DNA of 951 nt, taken from Escherichia coli. Lineage in GTDB: Bacteria > Pseudomonadota > Gammaproteobacteria > Enterobacterales > Enterobacteriaceae. The stretch lies in the NCBI RefSeq assembly GCF_003334765.1, contig NZ_QOWT01000093.1; one strand, given 5' to 3'. A program made the translations under genes and the position numbers. How positions within the stretch are numbered: the first letter of the stretch is position 1; the number at the start of each line of letters is the position of its first letter. Positions 1 through 951 of this stretch are shown in pieces. Under the pieces are notes generated by a model, which searched no databases, was not told where the DNA came from, and saw only the letters and a list, made by a program, of their open reading frames with translations.

Positions 1-222
1 CCCCTGCAGCGGGTCATAATAGCGGTGGCGGTTGTAATACAGGCCGGACTCCTCATCATACTGCTGCCCCGGCAGGCGGATAAGCTGCTGCAGCTGATGC
101 GGGTTCTCTTCATTCAGCAGGTTGCCCCATTCATCGTATTCTGCGCACCATTCTGTTGCCCCTTCCGTGCTGATAAGCGCCAGCGGCAGGCCGCGATGGT
201 CGCAGTGGTACAGGTGGATTTT
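1..222 (-). other. RHS repeat-associated core domain (C-terminal end of the Rhs core, immediately before the expected autoproteolytic DPxGL junction)
   Basis: The translation [74 protein letters not shown] has the characteristic shape Y-x-x-D-H-x-G-x-P ... W ... Y-D-x-W-G ... Y-D-x-E-x-G-L-Y-Y-N-R-x-R-Y-Y-D-P-x-x-G-R of the conserved Rhs C-terminal core domain. The domain is cut by the window edge. Confidence 0.75.
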
Positions 223-951
223 TCGCGCCGGCGTGTACACCGGGTCCATCTGGTTTTGCATCTGCTCCACGGTCAGGCCGCACGATGCCAGCCAGCGGCG
301 GCTTTCCTCACTCACCCGGTCAGCCAGGATTTCACTTTCCAGCCGGTCGAGCATCTGCACCAGCACCGGCGGGAACACCACACTGCCACCGTCTTCGCCG
401 CCGGACTGCTGAAGCGCATCCGCCAGGCTGCGGCGCTGCGTTTTCGCCAGCTCACCGGTGGCGGTTTCAACTCTGATGAGTGGCGTGAAGCTCCCCGGCT
501 GATAAATCGTCTGGATGCGGGTTCTGTCGTTCTGTATTGTGGTCAGCCGGTCGCCGTCCCAGCCGTACCAGGTCACTTGCGGTTTCCGTGACAGCGACAT
601 CCAGCCCGTCAGGTCCCGTTCACGCCGCCACACCCGTTTTGCCACCCTGCGGCCCAGCGGGTCGTAAAGATAGCGACTTTCGACCAGCGGCTCTTCATAT
701 TGTGTCCGCGTGTAGTGCACCAGCCGGTGCTGACTGTCGTAATGGTACCGGTGAGTCCGCTCATCATCCGTGCGGATAACCCCTTCCGGGATGAGGTCGG
801 TTTTCTCTGTCAGCCTGCCGTGACGGTCATACCGGTAAAGATAGTGCGCGTCACGGGCGATACGGTTATCCGGCCACATGCTGAGGGTGCTGTCCGGGTG
901 CAGCTCCGGGTCGGGCAGGCGGTTACCTGCCGGGTCTGTGGCATACGGGAT
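1..951 (-). CDS. Rhs family protein, conserved core region (YD-repeat polymorphic toxin, RhsA/B/C-like); partial at both ends, internal fragment
   Basis: Reverse-complement translation in the frame whose codons end at position 1 gives 317 codons without a stop. The product contains YD-repeat motifs ([48 protein letters not shown]) and the Rhs signature [35 protein letters not shown]...[22 protein letters not shown], which I recognise from enterobacterial Rhs cores. GC-rich codon usage fits Rhs cores. No start or stop codon lies in the window, so the true gene ends are outside it. Confidence 0.93.
538..843 (-). other. Block of YD (RHS) repeat motifs within the Rhs core (protein-level repeats, beta-shell region)
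   Basis: Four spaced motifs of the form aromatic-x-Y-D-x-x-G/H-R-L on the minus-strand translation: [12 protein letters not shown] (808..843), [12 protein letters not shown] (718..753), [12 protein letters not shown] (640..675), [12 protein letters not shown] (538..573). This matches the YD-repeat consensus GxxxRYxYDxxGRL. Confidence 0.75.

Follow-up and report, generated by a model that had tools for sequence, protein, structure and literature searches.

The E. coli rhs core, the DPxGL junction at its end, the polymorphic tips, the immunity genes and the orphan modules have all been described already, and part of this system has been solved structurally. The motif PxxxxDPxGL forms the boundary of the variable Rhs-CT, and yibA neutralises RhsA-CT (PMC3150448). 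The YD repeats build a beta-barrel cage around the toxin, and the C-terminal plug acts as an aspartyl protease. It has two DPLGL motifs located 17 residues apart, the second of which contains the catalytic Asp, and toxicity requires cleavage (PMC8636562). In solved Rhs proteins, the plug, with its two DPxGL motifs, releases the enclosed toxin through aspartyl autoproteolysis. Displaced or orphan tips accompanied by partial cores sit downstream of rhs genes, and recombination can reload them (PMC2935791, PMC3967940). This arrangement has been described as "C-terminal displacement" (PMC2935791) and as orphan toxin/immunity modules (PMC3150448, PMC3967940), and the recombinational activation of orphans has been documented in Salmonella (PMC3967940).

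The stretch of E. coli DNA analysed here, 951 nt in total and referred to as the window, was compared with these systems. When compared to RhsA, RhsB and RhsC of strain K-12, the window held only a quarter of the core, without the junction, the tip or the partner gene, and it contained no catalytic or variable part of an Rhs protein. It was 99.7% identical to K-12 rhsA (three mismatches), and 98.7% and 97.6% identical to K-12 rhsB and rhsC, respectively, across the 951 nt, sharing their reading frame.

Coding content and domain structure of the window

Translation of the minus strand (positions 1-951) gave a first frame that was open throughout, with 317 codons and no stop, and the remaining two minus-strand frames each had several stops. 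The GC content was 59.5-64.5% along the length, which is typical of the E. coli rhs core (about 60-64%). The last residues of the frame, as quoted in the original prediction, were present as written in the minus-strand translation; the letters of this peptide were thus right, but its placement at positions 1-63 was one codon off, the real span being 1-66. An ORF of 188 aa was also seen on the plus strand at positions 25-591, antisense to the rhs core, and it extended to 226 aa in L011 (1790-2470). Such long plus-strand ORFs were taken as probable antisense by-products of the high GC content of the coding strand.

The NCBIfam model NF041261 (RHS_core) aligned to the window product from profile position 913 to 1229 (of 1261), with an E-value of 6.9e-206 and 686.7 bits. 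That this score lies below the whole-protein cutoff of the model (2000 bits) is due solely to the window containing no more than a quarter of it. The window product is an Rhs core protein of the E. coli RhsA/B/C type, with a match far beyond chance, and the assignment to the Rhs core made from the letters alone is supported by the matches to RHS_core, TIGR03696, TIGR01643 and PF03527. The matches to the Pfam RHS_repeat family were weak. TIGR03696 scored 37.6 bits (cutoff 32.5) and covered model positions 1-42 of 76, stopping there because the window edge cuts the domain. The same domain was complete (1-76) in the related loci L001, L002 and L004, where its end was DPLGL. The coordinates of these features are listed in Table 1.

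Table 1. Features located in the 951-nt window, in window coordinates; residue numbers refer to the 317-codon product
Feature	Position	Strand	Description
ORF fragment, 317 codons, without start or stop	1..951	(-)	C-terminal quarter of the conserved Rhs core, E. coli RhsA/B/C type
Repeat boundary, gene-sense start	951..951	.	First base common to full-length cores and the rhsC-locus orphan core fragment
Best-scoring YD repeat, residues 61-83	703..771	(-)	TIGR01643, 31.4 bits against a cutoff of 15.8
Segment of about 75 residues, residues 166-240	232..456	(-)	Outside the Tse5 shell alignment, without YD-repeat match
Hyperconserved "RHS" domain, residues 245-281	109..219	(-)	Pfam PF03527, E 5.2e-15, model 1-37 of 38
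Rhs-associated core domain, first half (C-terminal plug / aspartyl autoprotease region)	4..138	(-)	TIGR03696, residues 272-316
Repeat boundary, gene-sense end	1..1	.	Last base before the polymorphic Arg codon CGA/CGG/AGG

The window also matched the solved Rhs effectors Tse5 (8cp6), that of S. bongori (8qjc), Rhs1 of P. laumondii (7q97) and Tse15 of A. baumannii (8uxt), with E-values of 4e-25 to 5e-12 and a coverage from the last YD-shell repeats into the C-terminal plug. These effectors are distant in sequence from the window, and their catalytic DPxGL motifs fall outside it. In the phmmer alignment with PDB chain 8cp6_B, query residues 24-165 and 241-315 aligned to chain residues 863-984 and 1015-1086. 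The 75 residues lying between the two aligned parts face about 30 residues in Tse5, so that the window is about 45 residues longer at this place. This segment closes with ...MDPVYTP.

Continuation of the core in related loci

The sequence following the window was examined in related loci (L001-L011). In all 18 continuations that could be read far enough, the core tail past the window was RYITQDPIGLKGGWNxYxYxLNPxxxxD[P/S]xGL, and the core ended exactly 32 codons beyond the window. This distance agreed with the parts of the profiles missing from the window, namely 32 positions of RHS_core and 34 positions of TIGR03696. The original prediction had placed the junction 20-40 codons past the edge, and had expected the motif R-Y-x-x-x-D-P-I-G-L followed by PxxxxDPxGL; the distance proved correct, and the 18 continuations carried RYITQDPIGL and then NPxxxxD[P/S]xGL. 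The junction motif itself was DPLGL, DPQGL or DSMGL in the relatives.

A polymorphic tip of low GC and then a small gene had also been anticipated beyond the core, and this was borne out in the related loci. In L001, the core had a GC content of approximately 62%, which dropped to 30-40% from the tip onwards. The sequences were unrelated after the core end, and at least six tips were found behind this one. The RhsA tip (Pfam Ntox34, E 1e-43) was followed by yibA, the RhsB tip (DUF4329, E 8e-40) by yhhH, and the RhsC tip by ybfB. The others were the IDSMGL-ASKYGH... tip of the ybfO-type orphan, followed by ybfC, the VDPQGL-VDINLYPES... tip, and the KVSFQGDESTQK... tip. Two of the six tips had both a Pfam family and a named partner (Ntox34 of RhsA with YibA, and DUF4329 of RhsB with YhhH), and four had no Pfam family. 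The idea that the core is a truncated remnant without a tip found no support, since every relative runs on to a junction and a tip.

One of the metagenome contigs, L011 (JADMIO012881212.1), contained at 1200-1880 a tip of the VDINLYPES type broken by an in-frame stop and followed by a same-strand ORF of 153 aa. The rhs gene on this contig was full-length, with a putative PAAR-like N-terminus. Additional pseudogenised orphans were annotated.

Copy number and nearest relatives

Megablast searches with the window covered 5,426 complete E. coli genomes and PLSDB. The segment was found in 3,889 of the 5,426 genomes, which carried it at a median of five and at most 14 places each. The best DNA match was rhsB of strain STK39-3-E, with 99.8% identity and two mismatches, and the exact DNA of the window was absent from both the complete genomes and PLSDB in this search. 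An exact pattern of 139 nt (window positions 102-240) gave no match in genome contigs and none in viral contigs, and was present in seven metagenome contigs (L005-L011), none of which was identical to the window over its full length, the best having five mismatches. At the protein level, the best 120 matches were partial E. coli proteins with at least two residue differences from the window and with three tip types, and none of them held the exact 317-aa product inside a longer protein.

These matches could be read as indicating that the window derives from one full-length gene, similar to rhsB or rhsA, in a strain of E. coli or Shigella that has not been sampled, in which case one tip of a known type and its partner would follow 32 codons on. 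The closest DNA is that of full-length rhsB and K-12 rhsA as given above, and both of these nearest genes have an intact tip and partner (DUF4329 with YhhH, and Ntox34 with YibA). We nevertheless consider an origin from one such gene improbable, as it leaves unexplained the behaviour of the window ends and the short contigs described below, and as core SNPs were found to be unlinked to tips.

Several PLSDB "plasmid" records containing the segment (H31-H43) were chromosome-sized (up to 4.8 Mb) or were fragments of 2-5 kb, the latter from Klebsiella or E. coli and consisting largely of rhs core. These records are probably mislabelled chromosomes or assembly fragments and not plasmids. P0041 (540 aa), an RHS repeat protein of partial length, shared 98% identity with the window and was labelled Listeria monocytogenes by NCBI, which probably reflects E. 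coli contamination of that assembly.

Orphan modules sharing the core segment

The region after the junction had been regarded in the original prediction as the only site of an rhs locus for a toxin/immunity pair. This was wrong, as orphan modules consisting of a core fragment and a tip were present further downstream in the same loci. In the ybfO-type orphan of the rhsC locus, associated with ybfC, the core fragment covered the same 951 nt and started at the gene-sense first base of the window, being preceded by an AT-rich flank and followed by an AGG or CGG codon. The orphan cores showed 98.1-99.2% identity to the window with 8-18 mismatches, the orphan of L007 being 99.2% identical, and the main genes were closer (two to three mismatches). 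Among the best 120 protein matches, 72 carried the orphan tip, and the best of these was two residues from the window.

The window could be read equally from an orphan module. It would then be the core of a promoterless orphan of the ybfO type, carrying a silent IDSMGL-ASKYGH... tip with ybfC that is expressed only after recombination with a main gene. The exact start of the orphan homology at the first gene-sense base of the window, the frequency of the orphan tip among the 120 protein matches together with the closeness of the best of them, the identity of the L007 orphan and the activation of orphans by recombination known from Salmonella (PMC3967940) all speak for this origin. It is nonetheless very unlikely, because a contig from an orphan alone would continue into the unique AT-rich upstream flank and not stop at the boundary, and because the orphans are 8-18 mismatches away when compared with the two to three of the main copies.

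Coincidence of the window ends with repeat boundaries

In K-12 and in other loci, both ends of the window were points of divergence between the paralogues, to the base. Upstream of window position 951, the main genes read ...ctggatatccgc, and the orphans (L004, L007 and L023 of K-12) read an AT-rich ...ctgggcattgat. K-12 has four full copies of the 951-nt segment with the same boundaries, in rhsA (followed by CGG), rhsB (CGA), rhsC (CGA) and the orphan (AGG), and these four copies lead to four different tips; the rhsA locus of K-12 contains an additional orphan of 385 nt. Copies within known genomes differed at 3-23 sites inside the segment. Two continuations leading to different tips were found on each of the single contigs L007 and L010, and the CGA and CGG forms occurred together on L008, where the second copy reached the contig end before its tip. 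The metagenome contigs L006-L008 and L010 started or stopped 29-55 nt inside these repeats.

The exact 317-aa product occurred on 22 contigs, none of which reached 2 kb, and it was never seen inside a long contig. Ten of the 22 were listed, each 953 nt long and originating from separate ENA metagenome assemblies or from a single Logan run. All ten started at the gene-sense first base of the window and ended two bases past the gene-sense end of the window (...GGGGCG), just before the A/G site, and they differed from the window by one to eight SNPs, all of which were synonymous.

By analogy with these 953-nt contigs, the window very probably represents a collapsed node of a multi-copy repeat and not a stretch of one locus. 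As no record with the exact DNA of the window was found, this origin is proposed by analogy. The node would be common to several paralogous copies, namely the full-length rhs genes and the long orphan fragment of the rhsC locus, and short-read assemblers would emit it as a stand-alone contig of approximately 951-953 nt ending exactly where the copies start to differ. The length of such a node would be 951 nt if it stopped at the C/A difference and 953 nt if it stopped at the A/G difference. The window record itself is likely to have arisen in the same manner as the 953-nt contigs. Structurally, the segment takes in the final turns of the beta-barrel shell built from YD repeats, together with the first half of the C-terminal plug. 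In any real genomic copy, the core would continue for another 32 codons, up to the second D[P/S]xGL, followed by an AT-rich polymorphic tip and a small gene, which in the case of RhsA would be yibA, known to neutralise the toxin.

Some features do not fit a collapsed node without further assumption. The ten listed contigs differ by 1-8 bases and are 953 nt and not 951 nt long, and the assembler must have merged small differences between copies, or else the source copies must be homogenised. The window could also be simply the coordinates of a called gene (1-951) cut from a 953-nt contig. The two findings of this section speak against the derivation from one full-length rhsB- or rhsA-like gene, which leaves unexplained both the fit of the two ends, to the base, with the divergence points of the paralogues and the occurrence of the product on contigs below 2 kb only, with ten at 953 nt having identical ends.

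A further short record was seen at the same boundary. In P0001 (529 aa, an NCBI partial protein from a 1,588-nt contig), ...DPLQGRYITQDPIG was joined straight to the start peptide of the window. This corresponded to a head-to-tail join of the repeat unit, in which ...YYDPLQGRYITQDPIG was followed by the unit start at the window-start boundary, and it most likely arose as an artefact of assembly across the same repeat.

Mosaic pattern of the core and its relation to the tips

In the alignment, gene-sense columns 1-773 of the window were identical to K-12 rhsA and STK39 rhsB, columns 538-951 to a partial rhs of TOP10, and columns 510-951 to rhsC of RM10042. The SNP pattern was thus a single-crossover mosaic of an rhsA/rhsB type and an rhsC type. 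Such a mosaic would have originated either from natural gene conversion between paralogues or from an assembler consensus of several copies. The window as a whole was nearest to cores bearing the RhsB and RhsA tips. We also considered predicting the tip from the core SNPs, but this was rejected, as the last 260 nt were 100% identical both to rhsC of RM10042 and to the truncated rhs of TOP10 and XL1-Blue, which bears the RhsA tip.

The original prediction had assumed a single variable payload lying just off the left edge of the window. This did not hold, as the segment is multi-copy, both of its ends are divergence points, and it recurs as a 953-nt contig. No payload can be deduced from the edge, because at most two further bases follow, several tips occur within a single genome, and the core SNPs are unlinked to the tips. 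The same considerations apply to the proposal that an Rhs C-terminal toxin/immunity pair belonging to no described family lies 32 codons past the edge in a source strain. Rhs tips are highly polymorphic, and the small sample here already included six tips, four of them without a Pfam family. On the other hand, nothing in the window bears on a new pair, each tip recovered behind a nearly identical core is seen again in public E. coli genomes or metagenome contigs, and the record cannot be extended, so that we regard such a pair as extremely improbable. The preferred interpretation as a collapsed node has a practical consequence: a fragment of approximately 951-953 nt ending in ...YYDPLQG would be a recurrent collapsed-repeat node of E. 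coli short-read assemblies, its edge should not be flagged as a lead to a hidden toxin, and the tips would be recoverable only from the assembly graph or from long reads.

The partial rhs of E. coli TOP10 (L003, 4658-5749) was itself truncated at the N-terminus, with a truncation point corresponding to approximately window position 603, and carried the RhsA (Ntox34) tip followed by yibA, yibG and yibH. It adjoined oppA instead of yibF, and the same arrangement was seen in XL1-Blue, XL10-Gold and Origami2. In these laboratory strains, this structure suggests a chromosomal rearrangement with one endpoint within the rhs core.
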